Virus record (IMG/VR): IMGVR_UViG_3300005675_000082
Location: 3,777-67,776 of that record
Strand: one strand, 5' to 3'
Source: a virus
Lineage: Duplodnaviria > Caudoviricetes
DNA length: 64,000 nucleotides
How positions within the stretch are numbered: position 1 is the first letter of the stretch; the number at the start of each line of letters is the position of its first letter. Under the pieces are notes generated by a model. It was not told the DNA's origin. It searched no databases and worked only from the letters and a program-made list of their open reading frames with translations. The position numbers and the translations under genes were made by a program. Shown in pieces: positions 1 to 57,028 of this stretch.

Positions 1-526
1 AGCGTTGAAGTTGGGTGTTGAGACCGTTGTAGGTTAGCCTGCTACAAATTCCCTGACGACGGAGATGCCTGATGGAGTGGAGGCGATCAGTAGCTACATT
101 TTGGAGACTGGTGTAAAGGGCACAGCGCGGGTTGATCGCCGCGCAGGTGAGAGTGCAAGCCTCTCCCCATCCACTACCTTTTATCGCAAGTAGGGTACTG
201 AATCAATCACGAACGACTGTCGCCCGACGGGGAATTATGATGTAAAGGGCAGCGGGGCGGGTTGAGGGTCGAAAGCGACGATTGACCGCGATCGGGCTTT
301 CCGTAGGGTGCGGCTCGCTGCTACGGTGGACAACATAACCGTTATGGCGTCATGGGGTGGCGCGGGGAGGGGTCTCCCTGTCTGGTCAGAACAGACTAGC
401 GGTTCATTGACTGAGGTTGCGGCGGCCCTCTCCGGCGCTGTACTCGGCAGGTGAAACCAGAGGGGTGACACCGCTGAGCGCCGGGAAAACCGAACAACAA
501 ACGCCTTTCGGGGCGTTTTTTGTTTT
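1..526 (+). ncRNA. 3' part of a large structured ncRNA, GOLLD-like (5' end outside the window)
   Basis: No credible ORF. Dense short hairpins (GCGCGG/CCGCGC 125-144, GAGAG-TGCAAGC-CTCTC 149-165, CCGTAG/CTACGG 301-326, CCCTCT/AGAGGG 426-465). Ends GGGGTGACA...CCGGGAAAACCG, which resembles the GOLLD 3' end as I recall it, followed by a terminator. Confidence 0.5.
499..526 (+). terminator. Intrinsic terminator closing the ncRNA
   Basis: AACGCC-TTTCGG-GGCGTT hairpin followed by a T-tract. Confidence 0.85.
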
Positions 527-543
527 CACCTACAGGCGAAAAC
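522..543. promoter_or_regulatory. 22-bp palindrome copy 1 (putative parS-like site or operator)
   Basis: GTTTTCACCTACAGGCGAAAAC. Confidence 0.7.
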
Positions 544-557
544 TCGCTGGCGAAACA

Positions 558-586
558 TTGAGACAATAGAATAAATGTGCTATAGT
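558..586 (+). promoter_or_regulatory. sigma70-type promoter with a LexA-like box in the spacer
   Basis: TTGAGA-N17-TATAGT; AGAATAAATGTGCT at 568-581. Confidence 0.7.
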
Positions 587-622
587 TAATCTACGCTTGA
601 TATACAATTAAGGGTTAACTCA

Positions 623-1225
623 ATGGCAACATTCACCAAGAACTTTTATGGGTCAACGGGGCCAGCGTGGACAAGCATCGGCAGTAACACGATGGTCTTC
701 TGTTCCTCCCTCACCGATCTGGCGACCAACATCACGGTGGCATCATATCAGGACGGGACGCACATCGGTAACGGCGACCCAGGCACAGACCAGTGCGGCG
801 CGAACCACGCCAACAACGTCAAGTACCTGACTTCCTCCACCATGAGCGTCAACGGCGGCGGGTCGGAAAACATCAACGACACCAATCTGGTCGCCAACGA
901 ATGCACGCTGCGTTACGACTTCGCCGATGCCGCCAGCGTCGCCATCACCAGCGCCCGTTTTTACTGCTTTAATGCCTCCGTCACGACCACACGCGCCAGC
1001 GGCTTGGATGTGCAGGCGTTTGAGCGCGGTGTGTCGGCAACGGCATGGACGCAGATCAACAACGACTCCGGGGCAACCGGAGGCGACAACAGCGGGCAGC
1101 GGCTGGATTTGGGGAATAAAAGCGCCGCCACTTCCCATAACTGGTATCTGGCGATTAGCGCTAGTCCCGAAAGCGTGGGCGCAAAAAGCGCATTCGACTT
1201 CGGGATAGCTCTTATATACAGCTAA
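623..1225 (+). CDS. Putative virion structural protein (accessory fibre/spike module)
   Basis: 200 aa, Ser/Thr/Gly/Asn-rich beta-type composition; RBS present; first gene after the promoter. Confidence 0.55.
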   Translation: MATFTKNFYGSTGPAWTSIGSNTMVFCSSLTDLATNITVASYQDGTHIGNGDPGTDQCGANHANNVKYLTSSTMSVNGGGSENINDTNLVANECTLRYDFADAASVAITSARFYCFNASVTTTRASGLDVQAFERGVSATAWTQINNDSGATGGDNSGQRLDLGNKSAATSHNWYLAISASPESVGAKSAFDFGIALIYS

Positions 1226-1233
1226 GGACACCC

Positions 1234-1671
1234 ATGTTTAACGCACTGATCCAACACGGGGCAGTCCAGCAGCATGAGGGCTGGATCGCGCTACTCAACA
1301 CAGGCGAACTGGTGTTTGAAAACGCGGCGTACACGGGCATGGCGGGCGAACTGACGAGCTGGCAGATGCTGCTGACACGCTGTCGGGCCGACAACGTGCG
1401 TATCGTCGGGCTGGCGCTGCGGCGCGCGGGGGCGTGGGTGATCGCGATGGACAATGCCGACAGCTATTTTCAGGCGCGTATGGCGACCAGCGTATTGAAC
1501 CAAACGCGTGAAGAACACTTTCAGGGCATCGGCACGGTGCTGGAAGCGCAGGGGCTTATCCAGATTACCTGGGTGAGTCAGTTTGGCGTGGTGTATCACG
1601 ATATGCAGCCCTTAAGCGCGCAGTGGGTACACACCAGCCAGCGCCAGCTAAACGATTTGTATACACCGTAG
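1234..1671 (+). CDS. Hypothetical phage protein
   Basis: 145-aa ORF, collinear in the operon, RBS AAGGA. Confidence 0.65.
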   Translation: MFNALIQHGAVQQHEGWIALLNTGELVFENAAYTGMAGELTSWQMLLTRCRADNVRIVGLALRRAGAWVIAMDNADSYFQARMATSVLNQTREEHFQGIGTVLEAQGLIQITWVSQFGVVYHDMQPLSAQWVHTSQRQLNDLYTP

Positions 1672-1678
1672 GGGGAAT

Positions 1679-2170
1679 ATGCCTACCGCATGGTATTTGT
1701 GTCCCTACAGCGCACGCAACTGGCGGCGCGTCAACGATGCGCGTTACTGCGCCATGCTGGACTTCGATGACCTGATTACGGCAGATGGCGGCGCATGGGC
1801 TGAAACGGAAGTGTTGGGCAATCATGCCATTGTCAAGGTGCGCGCGTCGGCAAATACGCTGACCACCATTAACGCGGCGGCAGGGTTTACCCGTCTGCCC
1901 AAGGATCGGTTAGACGCCCCGCTGAGCGACCTGACGACCCAACAAAAGACCGCCATTCGCAACAAGGTGCTGAGTCTGGGTTATACCAGCAAGGAAATCA
2001 CCAATCGTTTTGGCAGTGACCTGGGGGCGTACACCTTGCGCGACGTGCTGCGTTTTGTAGCGACCCGCCGACTGGAAGCGCGTTATGACGATGTATTGCA
2101 GCAGGTCGTGTTAGACGGGGCAGTAGTTACCCCGCGTTCCATTGAAAGCGTAGACGAAAGGGTATTGTAA
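1679..2170 (+). CDS. Hypothetical phage protein
   Basis: 163-aa ORF with RBS GGGGGA; stop overlaps a following ATG (TAATG). Confidence 0.7.
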   Translation: MPTAWYLCPYSARNWRRVNDARYCAMLDFDDLITADGGAWAETEVLGNHAIVKVRASANTLTTINAAAGFTRLPKDRLDAPLSDLTTQQKTAIRNKVLSLGYTSKEITNRFGSDLGAYTLRDVLRFVATRRLEARYDDVLQQVVLDGAVVTPRSIESVDERVL

Positions 2171-2188
2171 TGGCAGATAACGTGGCAA

Positions 2189-2980
2189 TTAGCTTTTTAG
2201 CCGTTCAATCTCCTGCTCTAATTCATGGATACGGGTTAAGGCAAGTTGCCATTCGTGATAATAAGTGCCATAGCCAGATGTTTCACCAGGTTGATTTTTG
2301 CCGCGAATATAAAGACGGAGGTTGGTAGGGTCGTTGTTAGTCTTGATACCATCCATATGATCGACAAGTTCATTAGATTGTAAAGGACGCTGCAATTGCC
2401 TAGCCATAACAAGACGATGTTCGAGAAGATAAGTCCGTTTGTCTTTCATAGCTTCATAAAGCCAAAGGTCTTCTTGCGCAATCGCGGCGCGACCAAGTCG
2501 GATATATCCTTTGACGGGTTCAATTTTTTTACCTTGGCCGAGATTAACCCAATCATGCTTCTTTTCAAATCCAGAGCACGGAATACATCTCCCGGTGAAT
2601 TTACCTTGTCGTATTTTTGCGGCGATAGGTCCCGGAGATTTCAAACGCTTTTGCCCACAATCGGGGCACGTAATGCGGACGTGAGTCAACCGCTGCCCTT
2701 TAACCAAAACAATCTCTGTGTCATCCCAATCAACTTGTGGATGGGCTGGTCTTTCGAGTCGATCAACCCTCACTTTATTCAGCAGCCTATCCTTGTAGCA
2801 ATATCCCGTATATGTTCCCTTGCGGATACGATAAGCAACTTGCCCCGCGTCATCGAATTGTTTTTTGTGGCAGTAAGGGCATGTGGTTTGTACCAGCAAT
2901 CGTCCATTTTCAGCGCGATAAACTGTATTCCAATCAACAGCAGGATGCGGCAAGCGTTCAAATTTTTGCTTCATTACCAT
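2189..2980 (-). CDS. HNH homing endonuclease (free-standing, antisense insertion)
   Basis: EHRLVM...VDHMDGIKTNNDPTNL HNH motif; CPYC/CPDC zinc ribbons; RBS AAGGAGG; own extended -10 TGCTATAAT; more AT-rich than its flanks. Confidence 0.85.
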   Translation of the reverse strand: MVMKQKFERLPHPAVDWNTVYRAENGRLLVQTTCPYCHKKQFDDAGQVAYRIRKGTYTGYCYKDRLLNKVRVDRLERPAHPQVDWDDTEIVLVKGQRLTHVRITCPDCGQKRLKSPGPIAAKIRQGKFTGRCIPCSGFEKKHDWVNLGQGKKIEPVKGYIRLGRAAIAQEDLWLYEAMKDKRTYLLEHRLVMARQLQRPLQSNELVDHMDGIKTNNDPTNLRLYIRGKNQPGETSGYGTYYHEWQLALTRIHELEQEIERLKS

Positions 2981-3026
2981 GTTGATCCTCCTTGTAAAAT
3001 TATAGCATTCAATGGCGGAGAATGTA

Positions 3027-3830
3027 ATGGCTGATAATCTAGGATACACAGCGGGCGCTGGTTCAACAGTAGCCACAGATGATGTAGCGGGCGTGCATTA
3101 CCAGCGGGTAAAACTGGTCAACGGCACGCTGGATGCAACGGACGCGATCCCCGGTGATGCCACCAACGGGCTTGACGTGGATGTGACGCGCGTGATCCCC
3201 GGCACCGGAACCACCAACTTAGGCAAGGCGGAAGATGATGCCCATACATCAGGGGACGTGGGCGTACTCGCGCTGGCGGTGCGACGTGACAGCGCGGCAG
3301 TAGGCACAGGGACAGATGGCGACATATCCACCCTGAACGTGGATGCGCAGGGGCGGCAGTGGGTGCGTCCCGCGCCTGTGCAGGTGCGCATCAGCGTGAC
3401 CCCTACGATCAGCACGACCGCCTATACTTCTGGCGATGTCGTGGGCGGGTTGCAGACCATCTCTAACGCGGCGCGCATCAGCGGGGGGAGTGGAATAATC
3501 CAGTCGATTATTGTCGTAGACAAAACACAAGCGCAGCGCGCGGCGATGGACATTCTCTTTTTTGACCGTTCCGTCACGGTTGCGGCAGATAACGCGGCAG
3601 TTGCCACCAGCGATGGCGACATGGCAAACATTCTTGGCGTTGTCTCTATCGGTCCGTACAACACCGCATGGCCGGGCACGCCTCTCAACAGCGTTTCAAC
3701 ACTGCTCAACGTCGGATTGCCGTTTGTGCTGAACGGGACAGATTTGTATGCGGTGGCAGTGGTACGCGGCACGCCGACCTATACCAGCACGTCAGACCTG
3801 ATTTTCATCTACACGATTTTGCAGGATTAA
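3027..3830 (+). CDS. Putative virion structural protein
   Basis: MADNLGYTAGAGSTVATDD N-terminus of a type seen in phage accessory virion proteins; RBS GGAG. Confidence 0.65.
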   Translation: MADNLGYTAGAGSTVATDDVAGVHYQRVKLVNGTLDATDAIPGDATNGLDVDVTRVIPGTGTTNLGKAEDDAHTSGDVGVLALAVRRDSAAVGTGTDGDISTLNVDAQGRQWVRPAPVQVRISVTPTISTTAYTSGDVVGGLQTISNAARISGGSGIIQSIIVVDKTQAQRAAMDILFFDRSVTVAADNAAVATSDGDMANILGVVSIGPYNTAWPGTPLNSVSTLLNVGLPFVLNGTDLYAVAVVRGTPTYTSTSDLIFIYTILQD

Positions 3831-3850
3831 AAAATAGAAAGGATTTCGCC

Positions 3851-4138
3851 ATGCCCGCGCCAGAACACATTCTTGTGTACCGCATTCAACAGGGCACGTT
3901 TCGCAGCGATGCCCCCGGCAGTCTGGTGATGGATCTGGGAATACAGGCCGGATACCTGAACGACAGCAATGAGTTTATCAAGCTGTCTATCCTGAAACAC
4001 ACCATGTCACCGCAGGGCGTAGGCGATCTGTTTACCGCCAACCCCAATAACGCCGTAACCCGCATCGAAGATTTAACCACTGCGCTGGGCACGTACCTGC
4101 TGACGAACGCCATTATTGACGGGGCGCTGGTCAGCTAA
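3851..4138 (+). CDS. Hypothetical phage protein
   Basis: 95 aa from the ATG after RBS AAAGGA; coupled to the next gene. Confidence 0.6.
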   Translation: MPAPEHILVYRIQQGTFRSDAPGSLVMDLGIQAGYLNDSNEFIKLSILKHTMSPQGVGDLFTANPNNAVTRIEDLTTALGTYLLTNAIIDGALVS

Positions 4139-4866
4139 TGAGCGTTGGATACGCTATTCATACCCACGTCGGCGCGGGGACGCTGCAAGCCTCCACGGGT
4201 GCGTCCACCGTTGCCGTTAGCCCCAACGCCTCGACGCGTCCACTGGATCTGGTGGTGGTGGTCTGTTACACCGCAGCAGATGCCACGCTGGTCAATGACG
4301 CCGGGGATGGCTGGGTTATCCTTGATTCAGGGTATGACAGCGTCAACACCTACGGCATTTTTATCGCGGCGTGTATCGCGTCTCGCAACGGCGCATCAGG
4401 GTATGCAGGGTTAACCCTGCCTTCCAGCGCCGCCTATACCGCGCAGTGTTCCACGTTTCGTATCCTGCAACCGTTTAAGTTTGATCTTGCTGTCCGCGCA
4501 CGCAGTACAGGCTGGTTTAACGCCACCGCATCCTCCACGACCAGCAGCGCCCCCGCTATTCTGCAACCCTACGGGCAAGTGCTCGACATTCTGGGACGCG
4601 GGTACAACAACGGCGGCACGACCACGACCAGCGGCAACGTCACCAGCTTTACAGAACGTTTTGACACAGGGCAGGTCAGCCCCGCGCATGGCGTGGTGCT
4701 GAATGATCGTACTGCGCTGGTACTCGGCACGCAGCAGAATGCGCTGGTGTCCGGCACGCTGGCAGTGGCCAAAACCAACCGCGCGGGGGTACGCGCCATG
4801 ATCGGGATCGTCGGCAATACGACCAATCGCGGGCGTTATATGTCCAATCGCCGCGCAGGGGGATAA
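4138..4866 (+). CDS. Putative virion structural protein
   Basis: 242 aa, Thr/Ala/Gly/Ser-rich, translationally coupled. Confidence 0.6.
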   Translation: MSVGYAIHTHVGAGTLQASTGASTVAVSPNASTRPLDLVVVVCYTAADATLVNDAGDGWVILDSGYDSVNTYGIFIAACIASRNGASGYAGLTLPSSAAYTAQCSTFRILQPFKFDLAVRARSTGWFNATASSTTSSAPAILQPYGQVLDILGRGYNNGGTTTTSGNVTSFTERFDTGQVSPAHGVVLNDRTALVLGTQQNALVSGTLAVAKTNRAGVRAMIGIVGNTTNRGRYMSNRRAGG

Positions 4867-6939: not shown

Positions 6940-6945
6940 ACACAC

Positions 6946-7260
6946 ATGGCAAATGAATTCGACAATCAAAAAACGAAAAAAGCGGCGGAGTCGGTGGTCT
7001 ACGAAATCGACTGGCGCGGCGCGGGCAATCGCAAGGCATTACGTGACAGCGATACCATTGCGACCAGCGCATGGGCATTTGTGTCCACAGGGCACGGCAT
7101 GACCCTGGATAATGATGGGGTGGTGGGTACAAACACGGTGGCACAGGTGCGCCTTGTCGGTGGAACTGTCGGCGGGCCGTACCAACTGCGTAACACGATC
7201 ACCACCAGCGCCAGCCCTGTGGAAACGCTGGTCGAAGATTTGTTCATTACGGTGGAATAG
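6946..7260 (+). CDS. Small fibre/tail adaptor-like protein
   Basis: KKAAESVVYEIDW...VRLVGGTVGGPYQLRNTITT resembles the small adaptor family (K-D-P...Y-x-I-D-W) that follows fibre genes. Confidence 0.6.
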   Translation: MANEFDNQKTKKAAESVVYEIDWRGAGNRKALRDSDTIATSAWAFVSTGHGMTLDNDGVVGTNTVAQVRLVGGTVGGPYQLRNTITTSASPVETLVEDLFITVE

Positions 7261-7282
7261 GTTTTCGCCTATAGGTGAAAAC
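7261..7282. promoter_or_regulatory. 22-bp palindrome copy 2
   Basis: GTTTTCGCCTATAGGTGAAAAC immediately after the operon stop. Confidence 0.75.
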
Positions 7283-7318
7283 TACCCCTTATCATGAAGC
7301 GGGTAGGGAGTGTTCATT

Positions 7319-7738: not shown

Positions 7739-7826
7739 CGTCTATCCTTTAACACACACTATACGTTACACAGTGCGGAAACACAAGAGTGCGCTTAACT
7801 CCGTCTTCCGCTGTCCGTTTGTGCTG

Positions 7827-8150: not shown

Positions 8151-8185
8151 TCGTCACCTTTCAGCGCAGCCTCAGCGCGTGCGCC

Positions 8186-13939: not shown

Positions 13940-13975
13940 TACTATACATTGTATAGTATTTTACCTAAAAGTCAA
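13940..13975 (-). promoter_or_regulatory. Leftward promoter with palindromic operator
   Basis: Minus strand TTGACT-N16-TACAAT; palindrome TACTATACATTGTATAGTA at 13940-13958. Confidence 0.7.
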
Positions 13976-18935: not shown

Positions 18936-18957
18936 GTTTTCACCTATAGGAGAAAAC
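18936..18957. promoter_or_regulatory. 22-bp palindrome copy 3
   Basis: GTTTTCACCTATAGGAGAAAAC overlapping the RBS of the gene at 18961. Confidence 0.75.
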
Positions 18958-21342: not shown

Positions 21343-21753
21343 ATGGCTCCAGTAGCACTCGGCACATCCATCACCCCCGGCGCGAACGCTGTTTTTGACA
21401 GCGGGCATATCGCAGGGGAAGCGCTGACCAACGGCAATCTGGTCTACCGTGACCCTGCCGACAGCAACAAACTCAAGAAGGCAGACCAGACATCGGCCAC
21501 CAAGGCGCAGGTGTTTGGCGTCGTTATCGGCACGGTGGCCAGCGGGTCGCAGGTGCTGGTACAGACGAAGGGCACGGTGACAGGCACGGCAACGCTGGTT
21601 CAGGGCGAGCACTACGGCATCTCTGGCACAGCGGGCAGCATTGAGCCTGCGGCAGATGAAGGCGCGGGTGACTTCTGGACGTATGTGGGATACGCGCCCA
21701 CCACCACGTCGCTGGAACTGGCGATCCACCACGCAGCGGTGGCGCGTGCCTGA
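21343..21753 (+). CDS. Capsid cement/decoration-like protein
   Basis: AGEALTNGNLVY...KAD...VFGV...V.T.G.V pattern; position in the head module. Confidence 0.6.
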   Translation: MAPVALGTSITPGANAVFDSGHIAGEALTNGNLVYRDPADSNKLKKADQTSATKAQVFGVVIGTVASGSQVLVQTKGTVTGTATLVQGEHYGISGTAGSIEPAADEGAGDFWTYVGYAPTTTSLELAIHHAAVARA

Positions 21754-24960: not shown

Positions 24961-24982
24961 CCTTTCACCCAGAGGCGAAACC
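24961..24982. promoter_or_regulatory. 22-bp palindrome copy 4 (degenerate)
   Basis: CCTTTCACCCAGAGGCGAAACC before the ATG at 24983, after the hairpin GGGTGTCC-TCTCTG-GGACACCC. Confidence 0.5.
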
Positions 24983-25654
24983 ATGAGCGATACGACCTAC
25001 GCCACCATCGAAGAACTGCGTTCGCAGTTTGGCAGTCTCAGCAGCGATAAGGATGATTTTATCCAGCGCTGTTTGAATGCCGCTGCGGAAGCGCTGGATA
25101 TGATGTGCAACTGGAACGTACCGCTGGAAGCCGCCGCCACCGCCAGCGCGCGCATGTACGCAGGCACAGGGCTAGCGTATGTCATGACTGACCCGTTTGT
25201 GTCGCTCTCGACGGTGGAAATTAAAGAAAGTCCCACCGATGCGGCGTGGACAACCGTGACAGCAGGCACGTATCTGCCCTTTCGCGGTGACCCGCGTTTC
25301 CCCGACTTTAACAAAACGCCATACAACGGCGTGGCGCTGCTGGGCAGCGGACGCACCTCCTTCCCCAGCGGCAAACTGGAATCGGACAGCGGGACGGGAT
25401 TGGCACAGGCGGTATTGGGTTATGGTCTGCCTACGGTGCGCATTACGGCGCGTTTTGGCTATGCCGCAAGCCTGCCGCCAAACGCCAAACAGGCGGTGCT
25501 GACACAGGCGACACGCTGGGTGAAACGCGGCGAAGCAGCCTGGGCGGACACCATCTCCAAGGGCGACATGGGGCAGTTACAGTTCCGCAAGGCACTCGAC
25601 CCGGATGTGGCGGCGATGATCGTACAGGCGCGGCTGGTGAAACCAACGATTTAG
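24983..25654 (+). CDS. Head-tail adaptor/connector
   Basis: YATIEEL...AA...D..C...VRITARFGY...P...KQA pattern; position. Confidence 0.75.
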   Translation: MSDTTYATIEELRSQFGSLSSDKDDFIQRCLNAAAEALDMMCNWNVPLEAAATASARMYAGTGLAYVMTDPFVSLSTVEIKESPTDAAWTTVTAGTYLPFRGDPRFPDFNKTPYNGVALLGSGRTSFPSGKLESDSGTGLAQAVLGYGLPTVRITARFGYAASLPPNAKQAVLTQATRWVKRGEAAWADTISKGDMGQLQFRKALDPDVAAMIVQARLVKPTI

Positions 25655-48825: not shown

Positions 48826-48826
48826 G

Positions 48827-49372
48827 TTAGACCCCCATCACGCGGTAGGCCCCGATGCGGGCAGGATGCAAACGGCGGGTGTAGGAGCGCGTGAAAGTGG
48901 GAGTGTCCTCATACACTTCCTGATCGTCGGTTTCATCCACACGCGAACCGGGGATGATAAAGCGGGAGCTACGGCCCTGTCGCCAGTTGCGCAGTCCCTT
49001 GAACACCGCCGCGTCCCGTTCGTAACCCCAGCCAGCAGCGCGGCGCATCTCGCCGTAGGGCGCTGACCAGTACCAGAGTTCACACCACCACAGGCCGCGT
49101 GTCCAGCGCGGCGCATCCACGCGGATCAGCGCGCCATGCAGCAAACGGTATCCGTCGCGGTGCAGTTCGCCAATCGTGCGCAGCGCCTGCCAGAACGCCA
49201 GCATCCCATCGGGGTTCGCTTCCAGTTCGGCAGTGTCTGTGCCTTCCGGCGTCACGGTCTGCTGCGAGTCTTCCGGCAAAGGCTGCTCGACGCTGGTTTC
49301 ACCTGTAGGTGAAAACTCCGGTTCAACGCGGCGGCGGTCTGTGCCTTCCTTGTGTGTCGTGCGTGTTGTCAT
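48827..49372 (-). CDS. Hypothetical protein (contains palindrome copy 5)
   Basis: First gene of the leftward operon, RBS AAGGA. Confidence 0.6.
   Translation of the reverse strand: MTTRTTHKEGTDRRRVEPEFSPTGETSVEQPLPEDSQQTVTPEGTDTAELEANPDGMLAFWQALRTIGELHRDGYRLLHGALIRVDAPRWTRGLWWCELWYWSAPYGEMRRAAGWGYERDAAVFKGLRNWRQGRSSRFIIPGSRVDETDDQEVYEDTPTFTRSYTRRLHPARIGAYRVMGV
49295..49316. promoter_or_regulatory. 22-bp palindrome copy 5 (intragenic)
   Basis: GGTTTCACCTGTAGGTGAAAAC. Confidence 0.7.
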
Positions 49373-49434
49373 AGATTTAATCCTTACGCTGATGTTTAAA
49401 CGGTGGTCATCGTTATGGTGTTACCTTCATTTAC

Positions 49435-49464
49435 AATAGTACTATACAATGTATAGTATTGTCA
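49435..49464 (-). promoter_or_regulatory. Leftward promoter with palindromic operator
   Basis: Minus strand TTGACA-N18-TACTAT; TACTATACAATGTATAGTA at 49440-49458. Confidence 0.7.
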
Positions 49465-49505
49465 ACAAGCAAAATTGACACCCCGCGCCAATTGTGGATA
49501 ATAAA

Positions 49506-49585
49506 AGATGCATGGGTGTAACCATGCATCTGATGTTTGATTGGTCATCGAACAGCCAACAGCGCTCCGAAAGGGGCGTTTTTGG
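49506..49585 (+). ncRNA. Candidate small RNA (three hairpins)
   Basis: TTGACA-N16-GATAAT at 49475-49502; perfect 10-bp stem, 8-bp stem, GAAA-loop terminator with T-tract on the + strand. Confidence 0.55.
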
Positions 49586-49942
49586 TTACAGCAGCGGCAT
49601 CTGCTCCGGCACATCCTCAGCGACAATAATCATGGCGTGCGTCTCAAATTCAAAGTCGGCTTTGGCCTGTTTCCATGACTTCGTGCGCAGGCGTCCGGTG
49701 AAGCGCTGCCACGCCCGTAAATAGGCGGTTCTGCTGGTGACGGTAATGGTTTTTTCTGCCAGTCTGATGTCCTCATGCGCCAGTATCTGCCAGACGTGAA
49801 AGCCGATACTGTCCGCCGGAATGAACACGGCATACGGTTCCTGTTTAACCGCCAGCGGGTAGCCGTAATCGTGCAGCCGCAGCGCATCGTCCCCTGTCAC
49901 CACATGATACTGAGTATCAAAACGATAGAGCGTGATGGTCAT
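49586..49942 (-). CDS. Hypothetical protein
   Basis: 118 aa, coupled to DnaB. Confidence 0.6.
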   Translation of the reverse strand: MTITLYRFDTQYHVVTGDDALRLHDYGYPLAVKQEPYAVFIPADSIGFHVWQILAHEDIRLAEKTITVTSRTAYLRAWQRFTGRLRTKSWKQAKADFEFETHAMIIVAEDVPEQMPLL

Positions 49943-51306
49943 AACAGCGCCAGGTCAATATCACGGACAGCGGCATTGGCAAAACGGGTGAGCGTCTTCT
50001 CGAAATACAGTGTTACCGTCCCCTCGCCACCGTCGCGCTGCTTGGCGACGATCAGTTCAGCAGTATTCGGAAACTCCGATGCGGGGTTATAGACCACATC
50101 ACGATACAGAAACATCACCACATCGGCCTCAGCTTCCAGATCACCCGACTCTTTTAAGTCGCTCAACACAGGGCGTTTATCCTTGCGGTCATCGACGCCG
50201 CGCGATAACTGATGCGTCGCCAGTATCGGCACGTTCAATTCACGTTTGCCCGTCATGTCTTTCAGTTTGGAAGCGATGTGTGAGACCTCAAGGCGGCGCT
50301 CCCCGATGCGTTTGCCCGGTGACATCTTATAAATGCCATCGACGATCAGCAGGTCTAAATCGCCATGTTTACGGGCAATGCGGTTGGCTTTCACTTCCAC
50401 CTGACGCGGGGACAGCGCTTTGGAGTCGTCGATAAAAAGTGGTAGCTTGCCACCTTCGCCAATGGACTCAACAAACCGTTCCCACAACGTTGTATCCAGA
50501 TCGCCGTGCGTAATGGTGCGGGACGGGATGCCGGAAATCATCGAATAGAGGCGGCTCATGATTTCCTCGACTTCCATCTCCATCGACAGAAATAGCACTC
50601 TTTTACCCATGCGTGCGACATGCAGCGCAATCGCCAGAAACAGCGCGGTTTTACCCATGCGCGGGCGTCCACCGAGGATATAAAACTTACGCTGAAGCCC
50701 GTCCAGCAGCGTATCCACTTCGGTAAAGCCTGTCGGGATGCCCTTCAGCCCGTGAATGGGATTGTTCACCTGCTGTTCTATCTGGTTGTAAAAGGCGATA
50801 GAGGCTTCACGCATGGTGACGGTATCGTTGGGCAGCGCGTGTTCGGTAACGGTGAATAAACGTTCCTCAGCCTTGCTCACGATCTGCTCTACGGGCATGG
50901 TTTCGTTGAGCGCCAGCCCGCGTATTTCATCCGACGCGCTCAGCAGCTTACGGCGAATGGACGCGCGTTCCACCAGGCGGGCATAGGTTTCGGCGTATAC
51001 TGAACTCGGTGTATTGCGAAACAGGCTGATGAGATAGGTATCGCCACCGATAGCCTCAAGCTGTTTAAAGGCTTTCAGTTCTTCGACCACTGTCAGGTAA
51101 TCAATCGCTTTTTTCTGTTCCAGCAGTCGCAGCATAGCCTGCCAGATGTAGCGGTGACGGATCAGGAAAAAATCCTCCGGCTTGAGGATCGCGGCGATAT
51201 CGGGCATCACAACAGGATTGACCAGCACCGCGCCAATTACGGCTTCCTCGGCTTCCTGGCTGAACGGCACATTTAATGCCGGGGCGGGAGTAGGTTGTTG
51301 AGTCAT
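49939..51306 (-). CDS. dnaB: Replicative DNA helicase DnaB
   Basis: PFSQEAEEAVIG, GGRPRMGKT, LSMEM, QLSRGVDDRKDKRPVLSDLKESG, IVAKQRDG. Confidence 0.95.
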   Translation of the reverse strand: MTQQPTPAPALNVPFSQEAEEAVIGAVLVNPVVMPDIAAILKPEDFFLIRHRYIWQAMLRLLEQKKAIDYLTVVEELKAFKQLEAIGGDTYLISLFRNTPSSVYAETYARLVERASIRRKLLSASDEIRGLALNETMPVEQIVSKAEERLFTVTEHALPNDTVTMREASIAFYNQIEQQVNNPIHGLKGIPTGFTEVDTLLDGLQRKFYILGGRPRMGKTALFLAIALHVARMGKRVLFLSMEMEVEEIMSRLYSMISGIPSRTITHGDLDTTLWERFVESIGEGGKLPLFIDDSKALSPRQVEVKANRIARKHGDLDLLIVDGIYKMSPGKRIGERRLEVSHIASKLKDMTGKRELNVPILATHQLSRGVDDRKDKRPVLSDLKESGDLEAEADVVMFLYRDVVYNPASEFPNTAELIVAKQRDGGEGTVTLYFEKTLTRFANAAVRDIDLALL

Positions 51307-52502
51307 GAGAATAAGGTCGCTTTCTTTTCGGCCATCTTACGGGCAAGTTCGGCGCGTTCATCGGCGCTGATTTCACGAGTTGCAGGCGCGGGCTGCTGGG
51401 ACGGGCGTGCTGGCGCTGGCGCTGTAAATTCTTCCCATGCGGAAATAAAGGCTGCGGGATCTTTGGGCGGGTCGGCGTTGGGTTTATTCACCTTCCACTG
51501 CGCATATACAGCCCGTACCCGCTGGGCAATCATGGCGTCTTCGTTCACTTCGTTGTAGGTCTTGCCCAGATGTTCGGCAAGGCAGGTAATCACCTTACCC
51601 ACACGTCCCGCGTTACCGTTTAAGACTTCAGGACTGAAGCCGGGGCGCATGTGCCAGCCGCACTCGGCAATCGCGTCAAAGGTCGGGCTGCGTTTCGCGG
51701 GCGGTTTGGTCAGCTTGTAGGTCGCATACTTCGCATCAGCATTGAGTACACTGCCCTTCACAGGAACGATGCCATGTTTCGCCCATGCTTCCAGCAGTGG
51801 GGCGTAGTCCTTTGGCGTGTAGGTCTTGGCGTACACCTCCTGTTTTGCTTCATTCACCGGATAATACTTGCTGGCGGTGAACCGTCCCTTGGCCGCTGGG
51901 ACTGCGGTTGTATTCTTTTCGTTTGCAGCGCTGGGATCTGTCCCTGTTTCTCCTGAAGGCGAAACGGTTTCGATTTGACGAAAGTCATCCTGTGAGATTG
52001 CCGCAGGCAAAGAATCTCTATTCTTTGTAGTTATCTCTGTAGTACTCTCTGTTATGGATTTGACGATTTTCGTTAAGTCCATTTGACGATTTTCGTCAAA
52101 TCCAATTTGCGGATTCTGTAAAATCGACTGCACACGATTTTTAAATTCTGGCCAGTTAATGCGCAGGTGAGTCGTCGGGACATCATTAAATTTCCATGTC
52201 CTGACAATGATTAACCCACGCTTGGCAAGGCGTTTAATACAATCGCGGGAATAGCGCTCAGTAATGCGGCATTCATCCCACCAGTCCTTTGCACGTTTCG
52301 CCAGCCATAATTCCCCATCGCGCTGGATCGTCATGCGCGGTTTACCCGTTTCGAGATTAAACCCATGCCAGAACATAATCTGACTGAACATAATGCCATC
52401 AATCAAATCACCATCGTTAATGTCTACATAGATGCGCTTCACGGCGATAACATCCCGCTGCGCATTTTCGCTGGCTAACCAGCCTTTGACCCACTCATCC
52501 AT
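51303..52502 (-). CDS. Phage replication initiator (O/DnaD-like)
   Basis: N-terminal wHTH-like region (DGIMFSQIMFW...W..E), ITESTTEIT linker, internal iterons, coupled to dnaB. Confidence 0.75.
   Translation of the reverse strand: MDEWVKGWLASENAQRDVIAVKRIYVDINDGDLIDGIMFSQIMFWHGFNLETGKPRMTIQRDGELWLAKRAKDWWDECRITERYSRDCIKRLAKRGLIIVRTWKFNDVPTTHLRINWPEFKNRVQSILQNPQIGFDENRQMDLTKIVKSITESTTEITTKNRDSLPAAISQDDFRQIETVSPSGETGTDPSAANEKNTTAVPAAKGRFTASKYYPVNEAKQEVYAKTYTPKDYAPLLEAWAKHGIVPVKGSVLNADAKYATYKLTKPPAKRSPTFDAIAECGWHMRPGFSPEVLNGNAGRVGKVITCLAEHLGKTYNEVNEDAMIAQRVRAVYAQWKVNKPNADPPKDPAAFISAWEEFTAPAPARPSQQPAPATREISADERAELARKMAEKKATLFS
51946..51965. promoter_or_regulatory. Palindrome copy 6 (intragenic, 20 bp)
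   Basis: GTTTCTCCTGAAGGCGAAAC. Confidence 0.5.
52058..52101. repeat. Iteron-like repeats, putative replication origin
   Basis: ATTTGACGATTTTCGT at 52058 and 52081; ATTTGACGA-TTT-TCGTCAAAT palindrome; partial copy near 51973. Confidence 0.6.
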
Positions 52503-52568
52503 AGCTCATCTGTTCTTTGGTTATAACGAATGTTTGACAAACCCACACGCCTCCGCTAGACTAAAGGC

Positions 52569-52662
52569 GTGTGGTGAGACTGTGACGCTGCGCGTTCGCA
52601 CCGCTGAGCGTCCCGATGTTATAGCTACCTACCAGATGCCCCGGAAACGGGGCGTTTTTATT
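52569..52662 (+). ncRNA. Candidate antisense (counter-transcribed) RNA in the rep leader
   Basis: TTGACA-N17-TAGACT at 52534-52562; terminator TGCCCCG-GAAA-CGGGGCG-TTTTT on the + strand. Confidence 0.6.
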
Positions 52663-52747
52663 TCCACCCCACTCAATTGAGCTGCGTTATTTTTAACGCA
52701 TCTCCGACAAAATTACAACCGTCATCTGGCAGGTAGGATGTTAAAGA

Positions 52748-54211
52748 TCAAAACGGAATCTGATCGTCCGGTATCTCCACAGTCCCCGCCGCAACGGGCG
52801 CAGCTTCGGCGGGCGTCTGCTGCCCCTTGTCGCTGATGTAATACGACTTGTCGCCTTCACCCTTCACTGCCCACTTCAGACGCACAGGGGCCACCGCCTT
52901 CGGCTTGTTATCCGTGACCCAGGACTCGATGTGGTTGGCGCTGTAGTAGGCTTCCCCCACCGACTTTTTAAACTCAGTCGAGCGCCCATAGACGCGGATC
53001 ATGCCGACAGCAGTTTTGAAGTCGATGTACTGCCCGTTGTAGAAGGCAACCGTTGAACACACGTCCCACTGCTCCTGTGTCGCGCGCTGGACGATGGCGT
53101 GTGTAGCGTCTATCGGGGACTTGTACGCGCTGTAGAATGTGACTTCCATCTCGCGCTCGACCTGCTCCACCGACTTGCCGAAGTTGTCCATGATCCAGTT
53201 GGCGAAGATCGCCTTTTCGTCTTCGGTCCAGCCCTTCGCTGGCGGCTGCGCATCCACTTCCCACGATTTCAGGATGTGCGCTACAGCTTCTTTCCCGCTG
53301 TTAAACTTGGCGTTCCATGCCTTTTCGTTGTTCCACTTATCGACCGACGCATAACGCAGGATTTCGCTGTGGCTAATCCCCTCAATGCGCTTGGCTACCG
53401 CTTCATAGAGCTGATCCAGCGTCGTGGGGTTTGCCCACTGCGTCGAGCCGTTCATATTGCTGGCGTCAGTCACAATGCGGCGGTTCGTGCCGTTGCCCAG
53501 CGTTTCCTTCGCTTCCTGCGTCGTGATGACGGGATGCGGCGGTTCTTCCGGCGGTGTAGGCAGCGTGACAACCTTCTCAGGTGTAGGCTGCTGCTTCATG
53601 ACCTGGATTTCACCTTCGATGATCTCCCCAACAGGCGCACCGTTTTCGTCCAGTTCGGTGTTGGGGGCCAGTTCTTCAACCGTGTACAACCCGCCGATGA
53701 TGTCACTGCACAGAGCTTTGGCGGCAATACTGACCGCGCGCCATGTCCACATCTGCGCCGGATATTTGTCACGGTTGCTGTTCAGTTTGGCGCGGGCGTC
53801 ATCGTCCCGGCCCCAGATCGCCGTGTATTCATCGCCGCTGTCAAGGCGTTTCATGCTGACCACTGCCTTGCCATTTTTCAGCGTTTCAGCGTTGTCACTA
53901 ATCGATACCCGCACCTTACCAGAGCGGCGAATGAGCGCCAGCATCGCCTCACCGGAGCAGGTCGGCACGCCACCGGAAACGCTGTAAATCGTGCGCAGGG
54001 ATGTCATGGGGGGAATGCCAAGCTCAAGCCCGTACATCGCGATAAAGAAGGCATCCTGTGCCGTTTTCGCCTTGCTCATGCCGGACTTTGACGCCAGTTC
54101 TGCCAGCTTCCAAACCGCCTGAATGGTGTCGAGGTTGGGAACGTTCGCGGATAGATTGCTGGATTGCGCGGGGATAATTGCACTTGTGACCATAGAATTT
54201 ACTACCTTCAC
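52748..54211 (-). CDS. RecT-like single-strand annealing protein with acidic SSB-like tail
   Basis: YGLELGIPPMTSL..I...G.P...GEAMLALI; Y...M..WRA.S..AK..C.D.IGG.Y..EEL; ends DDQIPF. Confidence 0.7.
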   Translation of the reverse strand: MKVVNSMVTSAIIPAQSSNLSANVPNLDTIQAVWKLAELASKSGMSKAKTAQDAFFIAMYGLELGIPPMTSLRTIYSVSGGVPTCSGEAMLALIRRSGKVRVSISDNAETLKNGKAVVSMKRLDSGDEYTAIWGRDDDARAKLNSNRDKYPAQMWTWRAVSIAAKALCSDIIGGLYTVEELAPNTELDENGAPVGEIIEGEIQVMKQQPTPEKVVTLPTPPEEPPHPVITTQEAKETLGNGTNRRIVTDASNMNGSTQWANPTTLDQLYEAVAKRIEGISHSEILRYASVDKWNNEKAWNAKFNSGKEAVAHILKSWEVDAQPPAKGWTEDEKAIFANWIMDNFGKSVEQVEREMEVTFYSAYKSPIDATHAIVQRATQEQWDVCSTVAFYNGQYIDFKTAVGMIRVYGRSTEFKKSVGEAYYSANHIESWVTDNKPKAVAPVRLKWAVKGEGDKSYYISDKGQQTPAEAAPVAAGTVEIPDDQIPF

Positions 54212-54249
54212 ATTTCCGTAATTCGGGATGGGCGATTTCGTGTTAAAAT

Positions 54250-54549
54250 TCAGGCAGGCACGAAACAGGTTAGTTTTGTGTCTGCTGCAAGGAAAAGTTC
54301 CGAGCGCTGGCAGGCGCCTTCAACACTCACCAGCGCTCGGAATGAACCATCGTCCAGACGCGTAAGCGCCCGGACTCGTTTGTCGCCTGCAAAGGTCGGG
54401 CTGTGGAAACTGGCATACGCCCGACTGTCGCAGACCTCGGCGATGTCTCTGACGACTTCACGCATATCAGCGACTACTAAAAACCACTGCCAGCCTAACA
54501 TCGCCAGTCGCTTCACAATATCCTCAGGTGGTGCTGCATACGTGGACAT
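54250..54549 (-). CDS. Hypothetical protein
   Basis: First gene of the leftward early operon, RBS AAGGAG. Confidence 0.55.
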   Translation of the reverse strand: MSTYAAPPEDIVKRLAMLGWQWFLVVADMREVVRDIAEVCDSRAYASFHSPTFAGDKRVRALTRLDDGSFRALVSVEGACQRSELFLAADTKLTCFVPA

Positions 54550-54579
54550 TTTTTACTCCTTAAGTGTATCATAATCTTC

Positions 54580-54593
54580 AGAACACATGTGTT
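54580..54593. promoter_or_regulatory. LexA-like box upstream of the leftward early operon
   Basis: AGAACACATGTGTT, flanked by TTAAGTGTATC direct repeats (54560, 54601). Confidence 0.55.
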
Positions 54594-54732
54594 ACGTGGG
54601 TTAAGTGTATCTCAATTTTTGTCGTTGGGGTGTATCCTTTCGCTCGGATATTTTCATCGCAGTGCGTTTACTGGTATCCTCTATTTGTAAATAAATCATA
54701 TTATGGAATTGCGGAATTGTCAATCAAACAAT

Positions 54733-54761
54733 TTGACAACAATTCAGAACACATGTACAAT
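54733..54761 (+). promoter_or_regulatory. Consensus promoter with LexA-like box
   Basis: TTGACA-N17-TACAAT; AGAACACATGTACA at 54746-54759. Confidence 0.8.
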
Positions 54762-54773
54762 ATAGGGGAAAAT

Positions 54774-54995
54774 ATGTCTAGGAAAACAACGGAGGGGTAT
54801 GTGAACGTTCAGGTGAAACGCGAGGTTCACGCGATGCTCGAATTGCTCAAAGAACGAATGAACGCCAATAGCTTTTCCGAAACGCTGGAGGAATATATTC
54901 GTGCGCACAACCCTGAAATTCCAGAAGCCGTGAATGCCATTGAAGAAGCAAAGCGACGGGCACTGGGACACGGGAGACGATCCGAATCGCAGTAA
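54774..54995 (+). CDS. Small RHH/CopG-like regulator
   Basis: 73 aa; YVNVQVKREVHAMLELLK...SFSETLEEYI strand-helix-helix pattern. Confidence 0.6.
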   Translation: MSRKTTEGYVNVQVKREVHAMLELLKERMNANSFSETLEEYIRAHNPEIPEAVNAIEEAKRRALGHGRRSESQ

Positions 54996-55056
54996 GTTGG
55001 CGTGCTGAGTAGACAGCGGTATAGTGTTCTCACCGTTATCAGAAAGGTGGAGAACA

Positions 55057-55254
55057 ATGGGAAGCTCAAAAGACATCAAGCGCCAGCAAAAGAAAACACA
55101 GAAGACGATGAAAGCGCTAACGAAGATGATTCCGCGCGTAAAGGTTCGGCGCGTAAAACGTACTGGCAAAAGCGGCGCGGGCTGCCCCTGCTCGGTTTTA
55201 ATGCTGGCGGGGATAGTCGGAACCCTTGTGCTATTGGCGATCTGGTTTACCTGA
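55057..55254 (+). CDS. Small basic membrane protein
   Basis: Lys/Arg-rich N-terminus, C-terminal TM segment; RBS GGTGGAG. Confidence 0.55.
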   Translation: MGSSKDIKRQQKKTQKTMKALTKMIPRVKVRRVKRTGKSGAGCPCSVLMLAGIVGTLVLLAIWFT

Positions 55255-55274
55255 ATCGCAGAGGAGTGATTTGA

Positions 55275-55703
55275 ATGATCTATTTTCTTCAGCGTGCCGA
55301 TGGCGCGATTAAGATTGGGTTGACAACCAATAAGCGTACTCTTGACTCGCGCATAATAGTGCTTGATAAACAATTTGATGGGATAAGACTTTTTGGTGTT
55401 ATCCCCGGTTTTATTAAGCATGAAAGAGAACTTCACGAGAAATTTTCCAATTATCGAATAAGGATGGAACCAAAGAGGATTGGGTATACCGAATGGTTTT
55501 TTCCGTATGATGAATTGACTTGTTATATCCAGAGGTTTGCAACATCTAATATCATGTTGTGTGTGAGGTTTCAGTTGCAGCGCAAAAAAAGCGACAATCT
55601 CCTTGAGGAATGGCAAGACTATGTAAAATCTTGCACTCAATTTTTTAACGCACGAACCAATTTGGGTCGATGGAGCTGTGGGTTTTCTACATTTCCACAT
55701 TAG
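55275..55703 (+). CDS. T5orf172/GIY-YIG-like nuclease domain protein
   Basis: MIYF...IKIG.T...R...E..LH..F...R...EWF. Confidence 0.75.
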   Translation: MIYFLQRADGAIKIGLTTNKRTLDSRIIVLDKQFDGIRLFGVIPGFIKHERELHEKFSNYRIRMEPKRIGYTEWFFPYDELTCYIQRFATSNIMLCVRFQLQRKKSDNLLEEWQDYVKSCTQFFNARTNLGRWSCGFSTFPH

Positions 55704-55885
55704 AGCATTGTCGCGATCGGCAAAATATGTCCAATGCATACGAATTCTTTTGCGTTTTAGCGATGCGCAGGGGTCGATGGTAGGAGGCGTGAAAAAACAG
55801 GCTTTAAATGTCATAACGGCAGCGCTCGATGTAACAATAAACAAACGTTCTAATCAGTGTAACACGAGTCCCAACGGGATAAAGA

Positions 55886-55911
55886 TATAATCTGGTTAGA
55901 ACTTCTGTTCC
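55886..55911 (+). promoter_or_regulatory. Promoter -10 with perfect LexA-like box
   Basis: TATAAT at 55886; AGAACTTCTGTTCC at 55898-55911. Confidence 0.7.
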
Positions 55912-56077
55912 ACTACGATTAAGTATAGGGTTGTGACGTATCGTTATATTACGGGATATTTAAGCGTGTGTACACTGGAATACCGTGAATGTTTGGTTAT
56001 AAGTCAGTTGTTCAGTAAGTGTTAAGTGAAGGCGTTGACAGTCTGTAACAGCGGATAGACAGGAGGTTGTAAGTGAG

Positions 56078-57028
56078 ATGAGCGACAGCATCGTCCTGAT
56101 CCCCATGAGCGCAGAGGAAGCGCGTACCTGCGTGACGGACATCCGTGAGCATATGCGCGTGTCAGATGAACAGCATCAACTGGCGCGCAAAAAAGCACAT
56201 GACCTGTGGCAGCGCGAAGGCTGGAAAGCGCTGGGGTACAGCAGTTTCCTCAAATGCGCACAGGCTGAGTTTGGTAAGTCGTTCCAGCATGTGTACAGAC
56301 TCAAGGATGCGGTGGAAGTCGAACAGCAGTTGACTTCGTTTTCACCTCTAGGTGAAAAGTTTGCCCTGCCTGAAACACACGCCCGCAAGCTGAAGTCACT
56401 GCCCACAGCGGAAAGCCGCTACGACGCGCTGAAAGTTGCCGAGCAGATGGCGTCCAGCGAGGGCAGCGATGTGGTGGCACAGCGGCACATTGAGGCGGCG
56501 GTAAACGTGACCGCGAAGAAGCTGCGGGTGTTTGCCAGCCGTTACGCCCCACTGTCGCAGATGGTGACAACAGGGGCGCTCAGCGTCGAAGATGCCGAGG
56601 ATATTGCGGTACGCATTGACAGACTGAAACCGCAGGCGAAAGGTTTTGTGTTGCAGCATCTGGTACGTGCTGGCGGAATGCGCGGGGATGTGCTGAGTTT
56701 CATCGGGGAGCAGTATCAGCGTGGAGATGACCCAATTGCGGCGCTGATACTACAGACGGTGAACGCCACTGGCTGCCTGGATGGGACGCTTTTAAAGAAT
56801 GCCAACATGGATAATACCAAACGCGCATTGTATGAGGCGCGACTGGAAGTGGAGAGCGAGCAGGCGCAGCACGAAGAAGATTACGGCCCCGTCAACCTGA
56901 CGCTGTGGGAGCGTGACGTGGAACGTTCAGCGGCGGCGCTGGTGACGATCATTGATAAAGCGTGGGCACAGCTATTGTGGTATCGGCTGGGTGAAGCGCT
57001 GGGAGTCGGGACAGATGGCGCGCGGTGA
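56078..57028 (+). CDS. Phage DNA-binding protein (WKALGY.SF...HTH-like), contains palindrome copy 7
   Basis: W..LGY.SF...F..S..HVYRL..A..V and PE.HAR.L motifs. Confidence 0.6.
   Translation: MSDSIVLIPMSAEEARTCVTDIREHMRVSDEQHQLARKKAHDLWQREGWKALGYSSFLKCAQAEFGKSFQHVYRLKDAVEVEQQLTSFSPLGEKFALPETHARKLKSLPTAESRYDALKVAEQMASSEGSDVVAQRHIEAAVNVTAKKLRVFASRYAPLSQMVTTGALSVEDAEDIAVRIDRLKPQAKGFVLQHLVRAGGMRGDVLSFIGEQYQRGDDPIAALILQTVNATGCLDGTLLKNANMDNTKRALYEARLEVESEQAQHEEDYGPVNLTLWERDVERSAAALVTIIDKAWAQLLWYRLGEALGVGTDGAR
56338..56359. promoter_or_regulatory. 22-bp palindrome copy 7 (intragenic)
   Basis: GTTTTCACCTCTAGGTGAAAAG. Confidence 0.7.

Follow-up and report, generated by a model that had tools for sequence, protein, structure and literature searches.

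Dispersed 22-base palindromes in a candidate phage-plasmid and the putative ParB-like helix-turn-helix protein that may read them

Results

A dispersed palindrome in a phage genome with a parA operon

In the tailed-phage record IMGVR_UViG_3300005675_000082 (Caudoviricetes; IMG/VR), an operon that runs rightward from an AT-rich divergent region comprises, in order, the gene of a protein that we call gp56078, a Cys-rich open reading frame (ORF), parA, the LmbU-like gene gp58020 and several small genes. A 22-base palindrome, GTTTTCACCT-NN-AGGTGAAAAC (type written GTTTTCACC), is dispersed over the phage genome, with one copy inside the first gene of this operon, and we consider here what these palindromes could be and which protein might read them. 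The window, i.e. the whole stretch of 64,000 nucleotides that was analysed, covers bases 3777-67776 of the 67,776-bp record, which is linear and ~98% complete; coordinates are window positions unless marked genome, and a further 3,776 bases lie to the left of the window.

The pattern GTTTTCACCTNNAGGTGAAAAC, with up to three mismatches allowed, returns five matches (522, 7261, 18936, 49295 and 56338), each with exactly one mismatch, and the full 22-mer has no match in 100 dinucleotide shuffles. The 16-base core TTCACCTNNAGGTGAA, with up to two mismatches, gives seven matches against 0.14 expected, adding those at 24964 and 51948, which fall within two degenerate copies at 24961 and 51944-51965 (Table 1). 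These are the seven dispersed palindromes listed in the initial annotation of this DNA, the counts and coordinates of which hold, save that the copy given there as 51946 is better placed at 51944-51965; its division into four intergenic copies (522, 7261, 18936, 24961) and three within ORFs, where they encode SPxGE (49295, 51944, 56338), also stands. One more weak copy, TCTTTCACCTCCACGTGAAACA, lies left of the window at genome 2835.

Differences between the copies fall mainly at position 7 or 16 and on one arm only, a compensating change on the other arm never being seen, which is the pattern of a protein-binding site and not that of an RNA hairpin. The spacer CT..AG beside the centre is conserved across copies, and each arm would therefore be 10 bp long. 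As had been described, the TTTCAC and GTGAAA half-sites are parS-like, matching six of the eight bases of the parS arm TGTTTCAC, and are held 6 bp apart by CT..AG. When the same de novo palindrome statistic was applied as a base-rate check to 20 other viral contigs and to six phages with the par pair, this phage scored nine sites, the related phage G003 eight and the controls at most seven; two of the sevens are GC-rich low-complexity motifs, and in so small a sample, where GC-rich controls reach seven, this excess of dispersed palindromes is suggestive only.

The copies occupy varied settings. The centre of copy 1 lies ~60 bp upstream of the inferred transcription start, there is no promoter-like site near copy 2 (7261), and the right arm of copy 3 is the AGGAG ribosome-binding site of the next head-region gene; an extended -10 element, TGATATAAT, was found by eye ~15 bp upstream of copy 3, where the promoter scan gave no full promoter. 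Copy 5 sits ~120 bp downstream of the promoter region that holds another palindrome family (see below), and the position of copy 6 recurs in the corresponding gene of two relatives, C26 (at 41902) and G427 (at 25006), both introduced below. Judged by their surroundings, the positions of the sites fit proteins that would sit on the DNA as roadblocks or nucleation points, and the copies at 18936, 49295 and 56338 appear positionally compatible with stoperator-type silencing sites.

A look-alike at genome 3526 is not counted, because ARAGORN assigns it to a peculiar tRNA-like gene, as part of the anticodon arm. This gene (L106:3502-3575) lies in an ORF-poor stretch and has an undetermined two-base anticodon; its anticodon arm (CGTTTCTCCTAAGGGAGAAAAG) mimics the palindrome.

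Table 1. Positions of the palindrome copies, of the genes of interest and of further palindromes in the window.
Feature	Position	Strand	Sequence	Setting or description
Copy 1	522-543		GTTTTCACCTACAGGCGAAAAC	Intergenic, between a terminator-like hairpin (499-518) and a promoter-like TTGAGA-17-TATAGT (558-586)
Copy 2	7261-7282		GTTTTCGCCTATAGGTGAAAAC	Directly after the stop of ORF 6946-7260, in a 58-bp gap between convergent genes
Copy 3	18936-18957		GTTTTCACCTATAGGAGAAAAC	Intergenic, between the portal-MuF fusion gene and the next head-region gene (ATG 18961)
Copy 4, degenerate	24961-24982		CCTTTCACCCAGAGGCGAAACC	Intergenic, directly before ATG 24983; right arm overlaps the ribosome-binding site
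Copy 5	49295-49316		GGTTTCACCTGTAGGTGAAAAC	Inside ORF 48827-49372 (- strand), codons 19-26, read EFSPTGE
Copy 6, degenerate	51944-51965		CTGTTTCTCCTGAAGGCGAAAC	Inside the replication-initiator/loader gene adjoining dnaB, read VSPSGE
Copy 7	56338-56359		GTTTTCACCTCTAGGTGAAAAG	Inside the gp56078 gene, codons 87-94, read SFSPLGEK; upstream of parA
gp56078	56078-57028	+		316 amino acids, first gene of the rightward parA operon; proposed palindrome binder
Small Cys-rich ORF	57015-57218	+		67 amino acids, CxxC...CxxC; between gp56078 and parA
ParA	57242-58030	+		Short Walker-type partition ATPase, KGGVGKTT
gp58020, LmbU-like	58020-58790	+		256 amino acids, overlaps the parA end; C-terminal helical hairpin
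dnaB	49939-51306			Adjoins the initiator/loader gene
Replication initiator/helicase-loader gene	51303-52502	-		DnaD-like and O-like PHROG matches; holds copy 6
TGCAAC-N4-GTTGCA, one mismatch	61988			Inside a leftward ORF
TGCAAC-N4-GTTGCA, perfect	62112		TGCAACCGTAGTTGCA	Inside a leftward ORF
Second palindrome family	13940-13958; 49440-49458; genome 3345-3363 (L106)		TACTATACANTGTATAGTA	Three copies

The motif class accompanies homologues of gp56078

A scan of species-representative genomes found ParA with an LmbU-like gene on several Chloroflexota contigs from metagenome-assembled genomes (MAGs). One of these, C26, a 57,557-bp contig of an Anaerolineae MAG, carries a gp56078 homologue as well, and does so in the same gene order. 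Seven of 101 genes are common to C26 and this phage (the tape measure, two tail genes, DnaB, gp56078, ParA and the LmbU-like gene), and C26 carries five dispersed copies of TTTC[A/G]CCTATAGGCGAAA at 0-1 mismatch, four of the five lying inside ORFs (crude gene calls). The remaining ~6 Mb of its MAG bin holds no copy at 0-1 mismatch, and two-mismatch matches there are at chance level only; the motif is element-specific, as had been supposed, and the palindrome is real and conserved. The C26 homologue of gp56078 is 34% identical overall and 45% over residues 40-115, and keeps the helix-turn-helix (KSFQHVYRL / ISWQHAYRL; LPETHARKLKSLP / IPEVHARELKTLP); the gp58020 homologue of C26 is the most divergent, with 22% identity overall and 32% over the DNA-binding core. 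No counterpart of the small Cys-rich ORF was found in C26. The contig also has a second palindrome of its own, TAAATCA-N5-TGATTTA, at 21679, 34521, 41935 and 44961 (L173-L175), one of them 13 bp away from an occurrence of the shared motif.

A broader alignment of the gp56078 N-terminal domain gathers 65 viral loci, none of which has ParA or an LmbU-like gene within 10 kb. Palindromes of the same architecture lie exactly on the SPxGE/D codons of the homologue in L185 (AATTTCGCCAATTGGCGAAATT), L182 (TTTCCCCCATGGGGGAAA), L196 (AGTGTCTCCTATAGGAGACACT), L183 and G005 (TTCCCCCGTGGGGGAA). G427, a complete 71-kb phage with terminal repeats and a 34%-identical gp56078 homologue, has no ParA detectable by profile or tblastn and carries nine dispersed TTTCRCCC-NN-GGGYGAAA sites (reversed-pattern control, 0), all nine inside ORFs according to crude gene calls. 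Altogether, the motif class accompanies gp56078 homologues in no fewer than eight phages, of which most lack ParA, and it varies between phages in step with the homologue; it therefore follows gp56078 and not the par pair. The initial annotation had offered, as its second choice, that the palindromes are sites of the protein at 56078, and this is the better fit: the motif class tracks the homologues and often lies in their own genes.

How could a DNA site come to lie within a coding sequence so repeatedly? SPxGE is conserved at one position of the gp56078 family down to 27% identity, and its codons, TCN CCN NNN GGN GAR, are bound by the genetic code to form a palindrome whenever their third positions match. 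The in-gene codons of this phage (TTT TCA CCT xxA GGT GAA) are mostly rare ones, and the two strong in-gene copies have a probability of ~2e-4 each, given the peptides and the codon usage of this phage. All seven in-ORF copies of this phage and C26 read as (F/V/H)SPxGE. The gp56078 homologue of C26 has APDDT in place of SPxGE and no in-gene site at that position; the protein can thus do without the peptide. We infer that SPxGE is kept in many family members because its codons are the protein's own putative DNA site.

Other searches cover a wider range of sequences. Phage and plasmid records searched with the par-region DNA and gp58020 gave nothing useful, nor did IMG/VR scans with single proteins and with alignment A1 (words drawn from the C-terminal half), and a metagenome scan returned one near-identical 3.1-kb fragment. 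The exact-motif scan of IMG/VR yielded 31 loci with a single copy each, roughly as many as chance would give; two of them, L022 and L026, are fragments of the phage described here. A profile search of 401 Anaerolineae genomes for gp56078 recovered only the already-known contig and two weak homologues without SPxGE.

Two predicted DNA-binding proteins flank parA

gp56078 is predicted to be all-helical, with a confident N-terminal region of 150 residues (predicted local distance difference test, pLDDT, 80-92) and an N-terminal helix-turn-helix laid out like the ParB DNA-binding domain, with weak matches only. It has no Pfam family at E 0.01, so no DUF3102 (PF11300) profile match, and it matches phrog_464, of unknown function, at 5e-8; in a language-model atlas its neighbours carry the label DUF3102 (score 0.95), a family for which we found no functional study in the literature. 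Foldseek returned designed helical proteins only, and PDB sequence searches with the gp56078 and gp58020 family profiles gave nothing.

The AlphaFold model of gp58020 has a mean pLDDT of 77, rising above 85 over residues 51-190, and the fold of residues 76-190 is that of the ParB/Spo0J/Noc DNA-binding domain. Its best structure match is Spo0J-parS (4umk_D, Z 11.1, root-mean-square deviation 3.1, 111 aligned), followed by Caulobacter ParB-parS (6t1f_D, Z 11.0) and Noc-NBS (6y93_B, Z 10.5), with KorB, SopB, P1 ParB and VirB ranking lower. The N-terminus is disordered and basic, a feature that all relatives keep and whose position is conserved in six of them; the family alignment A3 contains no GxxRxxA box, and gp58020 has no Pfam match at E 0.1. 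The ParB N-terminal domain PF02195 found no match in six frames over the whole record, the same search having matched 11 of 14 control genomes. These structure matches and the negative PF02195 search agree with the earlier description of the LmbU-like protein as a ParB-type DNA-binding domain without a CTPase domain, an arrangement that, together with the basic N-terminus, points to a ParB-like adaptor. Among the structural neighbours of the gp58020 atlas model is an atlas cluster with the name LmbU (template-modelling scores 0.47 / 0.65); LmbU itself is a DNA-binding homodimer (PMC6510168).

ParA matches Pfam AAA_31 (2.5e-29) and CbiA (5e-18) as well as the ParA-like phrog_164, and parA with an LmbU-like gene forms a conserved pair in at least ten elements. 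gp58020 is likely to be the partner of ParA. The predicted structures make it plausible that both gp56078 and gp58020 are DNA binders, and their profile alignment, weak as it is, lines up W..G, the helix-turn-helix, the loop and (L/I)PE.HAR.

Phages with the par pair have palindromes of their own

The family alignment of gp58020 contains 54 viral loci, five of them with parA directly upstream (G001-G005). In G001-G004 there is no detectable gp56078 homologue and no excess of the 22-mer motif, and each has its own palindrome: TGGGGATATATCCCCA in G001 (4-6 sites), TGGTTAAATTTAACCA in G002 (3-4 sites, near the rep-par genes), ATGCAAAG-NN-CTTTGCAT in G003 (11-13 sites, dispersed) and ATGCAACA-NN-TGTTGCAT in G004 (seven sites). 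In G003 and G004, with their other palindromes, the DNA-binding core is 56-58% identical to that of gp58020, against the 32% of C26. G003 (60.6 kb, L097-L100) has 12 genes in common with this phage, and about half of its palindromes lie at gene boundaries.

Could gp58020 have a site elsewhere? G004 and G003, whose LmbU-like proteins are closest to gp58020, carry TGCAA-N6-TTGCA palindromes, and in this phage TGCAAC-N4-GTTGCA occurs twice, with a half-like copy at 62092, in a segment (61988-62127) ~3.2 kb beyond gp58020. About 0.004 perfect copies would be expected in the window; with two mismatches the count is not above chance (7 vs 5.4 expected), so only the local pair at 61988 and 62112 counts. 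By likeness to the G003 and G004 sites, these palindromes may be the site of gp58020 itself, which we regard as a lead only. A repeat search of 54500-61800 found no local centromere array beside the par genes of this phage. On an Anaerolineaceae MAG contig, six copies of TTCGGTACGTACCGAG lie ~140 bp apart directly after a parA + LmbU-like pair (L161:3378-4390); this array, which a run of N interrupts, is laid out as a classical centromere for the LmbU-like adaptor family would be.

The second palindrome family, TACTATACANTGTATAGTA = TACTATACA(T/A)TGTATAGTA, was read as lying between -35 and -10 elements, and at least the copy at 49440 does lie between TTGACA and a -10-like element. It differs from the LexA box, having no CTG...CAG, and probably represents the classical operators of another regulator.

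Genome content

Profile matches identify structural genes (terminase, portal-MuF fusion and tail genes) and replication genes (primase, DnaB, a DnaD/O-like initiator and a RecT-like protein), and there are further genes for a helicase, a methyltransferase, and HNH and GIY-YIG endonucleases. Six-frame searches of the genome gave no match to a tyrosine or serine recombinase (integrase), and no terminal repeat was found in the 67,776-bp record. With ParA, Rep, DnaB and primase present and no integrase, the gene set looks like that of a phage-plasmid, as the initial annotation had it.

Several other features deserve mention. Within the initiator gene, at 51990-52050 and ~40 bp from the degenerate copy 6, short iteron-like repeats (tctctattc, tatctctgtag and tactctctgtta) may mark a replication origin. 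At 55233-55747, within ORF 54744-55844, ~515 bp are missing from a near-identical metagenome contig, L005, which has ~32 different bases in their place; copies of this phage are polymorphic here for an insertion/deletion. Finally, a 40-base direct repeat, 88% identical between 59318-59357 and 59653-59692, precedes two small rightward genes and appears to be a shared leader.

Discussion

The reading that we favour, and in which we have roughly even confidence, is that the palindromes are recognition sites of gp56078, acting as a genome-wide silencer or roadblock. A gp56078 dimer would read the two 10-bp arms; the gp56078 family at large has such a site within or close to its own gene, in many members on the SPxGE codons, and further copies are dispersed, many of them in other genes. 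In the carried (plasmid-prophage) state, bound gp56078 would then form roadblocks or silencing complexes across the genome and regulate its own synthesis: through the copy within its gene it would hold down the gp56078-parA-gp58020 operon, through the one in the rep/loader gene the replication genes, and at 18936 and 24961 it would mask ribosome-binding sites and leaders of head genes. Perhaps the same complexes double as partition anchors where the gene heads the parA operon, as it does in this phage, C26 and G005.

Several points weigh against this proposal. The attribution draws on co-occurrence in a handful of mosaic genomes, from which we infer the binding itself, and the gene calls for the relatives are crude. 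The structure matches of gp56078 are weak (Raf1, Z 8.1; Spo0J, Z 6.4; ParB DNA-binding domain, Z 6.2), the values of 8.1 and 6.4 being within the range that the structure-comparison tool calls unreliable for helical proteins, and gp56078 also compares poorly with the gp58020 family at the profile level (probability 4%). The positions of the sites relative to promoters are mixed (~-60, ~+10, between convergent genes, inside genes), which makes them a poor fit to a classical promoter-bound repressor. As gp56078 heads the parA operon in three elements, the sites might still have a role in partition; and gp58020, with its solid predicted ParB-type domain, could itself be their reader, since specificity can hinge on a few residues.

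The last two points bear on two readings in which the palindromes are centromeres. In the first, a three-part partition system, gp56078 would read the palindromes as centromeres and gp58020 would bridge them to ParA. The order gp56078-like gene, parA, LmbU-like gene is kept in three very different elements, one site lies inside the first gene of the operon, and the sites are element-specific and mostly away from promoters, in a genome that, having no integrase, needs partition. However, most phages of the gp56078 family have no ParA, and yet at least one of them keeps its dispersed sites: the nine in G427 indicate that site dispersal is independent of partition, and we consider this reading unlikely.

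In the second, which the initial annotation preferred and which we rate as quite improbable, the palindromes would be dispersed centromeres of the ParA + LmbU-like pair, bound by the ParB-fold protein gp58020 and handed to ParA in a manner like N15 sop or the RK2 OB sites. In its favour are the matches of residues 76-190 to ParB/Spo0J/Noc domains (Z 10.5-11.1), the resemblance of the half-site TTTCAC to parS, the overlap of the gene with parA, the conserved basic N-terminal peptide, the recurrence of the gene pair in at least ten elements and the want of an integrase; relatives with the pair also have their own over-represented palindromes, and L161 its six-copy array. Nevertheless, four phages with the pair (G001-G004, which have other palindromes) lack the motif, phages with neither the pair nor ParA have it, and the DNA-binding core is least conserved, at 32%, in the very relative that shares the motif. 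The TGCAAC-N4-GTTGCA palindromes, moreover, resemble the sites of the phages with the closest proteins. On this evidence, gp58020 is probably not the reader of the 22-mer.

Two further explanations are far less probable. RNA hairpins formed between an anti-Shine-Dalgarno (TCACCT) and a Shine-Dalgarno sequence (AGGTGA), controlling translation or RNA processing, would account for the presence of AGGTGA on both strands of the arms, for the right arms at 18936 and 24961 being the ribosome-binding sites of the next genes, and for the over-representation of the half-site TTTCACC (30 vs 8.5 expected, part of the excess being ordinary ribosome-binding sites); against this, differences between copies break pairs and are never compensated, most copies have no suitably spaced start codon and one lies between convergent genes, the two-base centre would require a 4-base loop, and the motif co-varies with a DNA-binding protein family, all of which leaves this idea with very little to recommend it. 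A reader supplied by the Chloroflexota host, be it a global regulator or a factor of the ParB/Noc-like kind, is just as hard to credit. The half-site is parS-like, both motif-sharing elements appear tied to Anaerolineae and relatives of both proteins are mostly found in Anaerolineae MAGs; against this, the rest of the C26 MAG (~6 Mb) has no copy at 0-1 mismatch and the variants of the motif shift from phage to phage with the gp56078 homologue.

Returning to gp56078 as the reader, we could extend the proposal to a family of phage DNA-binding proteins, widespread and so far undescribed, that have a ParB-like helix-turn-helix but lack the CTPase domain. These would carry their palindrome in their own frame as SPxGE, have FSPxGE stamped into unrelated genes and act in silencing; in a few phage-plasmids, ParA and a further ParB-like adaptor would have joined them in a partition system of three proteins whose centromeres are dispersed. 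In this full form the idea is tentative, and we would expect at least part of it to be wrong.

Few well-studied examples exist of dispersed binding sites through which an entire mobile element is organised or silenced (RK2 KorB, N15 SopB, P1 C1 and the L5 stoperators), and the present case, if true, would add both a new protein family and a new class of site. The source phages seem to have their hosts among the Chloroflexota (Anaerolineae), a phylum whose phages have hardly been studied genetically. There is also an overlap of codes to consider, SPxGE seemingly being kept because its codons are the protein's own putative docking site, and a lesson for annotation, namely that ParA beside a ParB-like gene does not tell which nearby protein reads a dispersed palindrome. 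Should the binding be true, the 22-mer and gp56078 could make an orthogonal operator/repressor or DNA-labelling pair.

Among known systems, KorB acts on dispersed OB operators, with the ParA protein IncC, on the IncP plasmid RK2 (PMC11790492), and such sites may be spread over a genome (PMC5016525). The likeness to our case is considerable: one short palindrome scattered over a mobile element, the gene of the reader in a ParA operon, a proposed reader that resembles a ParB-type helix-turn-helix, sites at varied distances from promoters and, perhaps, regulation combined with partition. Unlike KorB, which is a ParB CTPase clamp, gp56078 belongs to another, uncharacterised family, most phages of which have no ParA, and no ParB N-terminal domain is detectable in this genome.

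The phage-plasmid N15 has inverted repeats dispersed through its genome, late regions included, and these are served by a type Ia SopB of the ParB CTPase family with a long SopA. This phage likewise appears to be a phage-plasmid without an integrase, with dispersed inverted repeats instead of one centromere array; here, in contrast, ParA is short, its likely partner has no CTPase domain, and the palindromes are tied to a third protein and not to the partner of ParA. Canonical parS, TGTTTCAC-GTGAAACA, is the site of chromosomal ParB/Spo0J, with one copy lying inside spo0J. The TTTCAC and GTGAAA half-sites, the dispersal of the copies and the site inside the gene of the presumed reader all recall it; however, our palindrome is not a contiguous 16-bp one, its half-sites standing 6 bp apart around a conserved CT-NN-AG, and there is no CTPase ParB; the likeness of six in eight bases per half-site may be due to chance.

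The phage-plasmid P1 has dispersed C1 operators, and cluster A mycobacteriophages reportedly have stoperators, bound by the L5 gp71 repressor, as Brown et al. are said to have described in 1997. As in those systems, many copies of one site lie across the genome; some of the known repressor sites are downstream of promoters, where the bound protein blocks elongation and so silences the prophage. Those known sites are asymmetric, oriented with transcription and mostly placed in short intergenic gaps, whereas the sites here are symmetric 22-mers, many of them in coding sequence, and gp56078 is unrelated to the stoperator and C1 repressor proteins. None of these nearest known systems (KorB, N15, stoperators and C1) is a family match, and it is the gp56078-family proteins, together with the SPxGE code overlap, that are new here.

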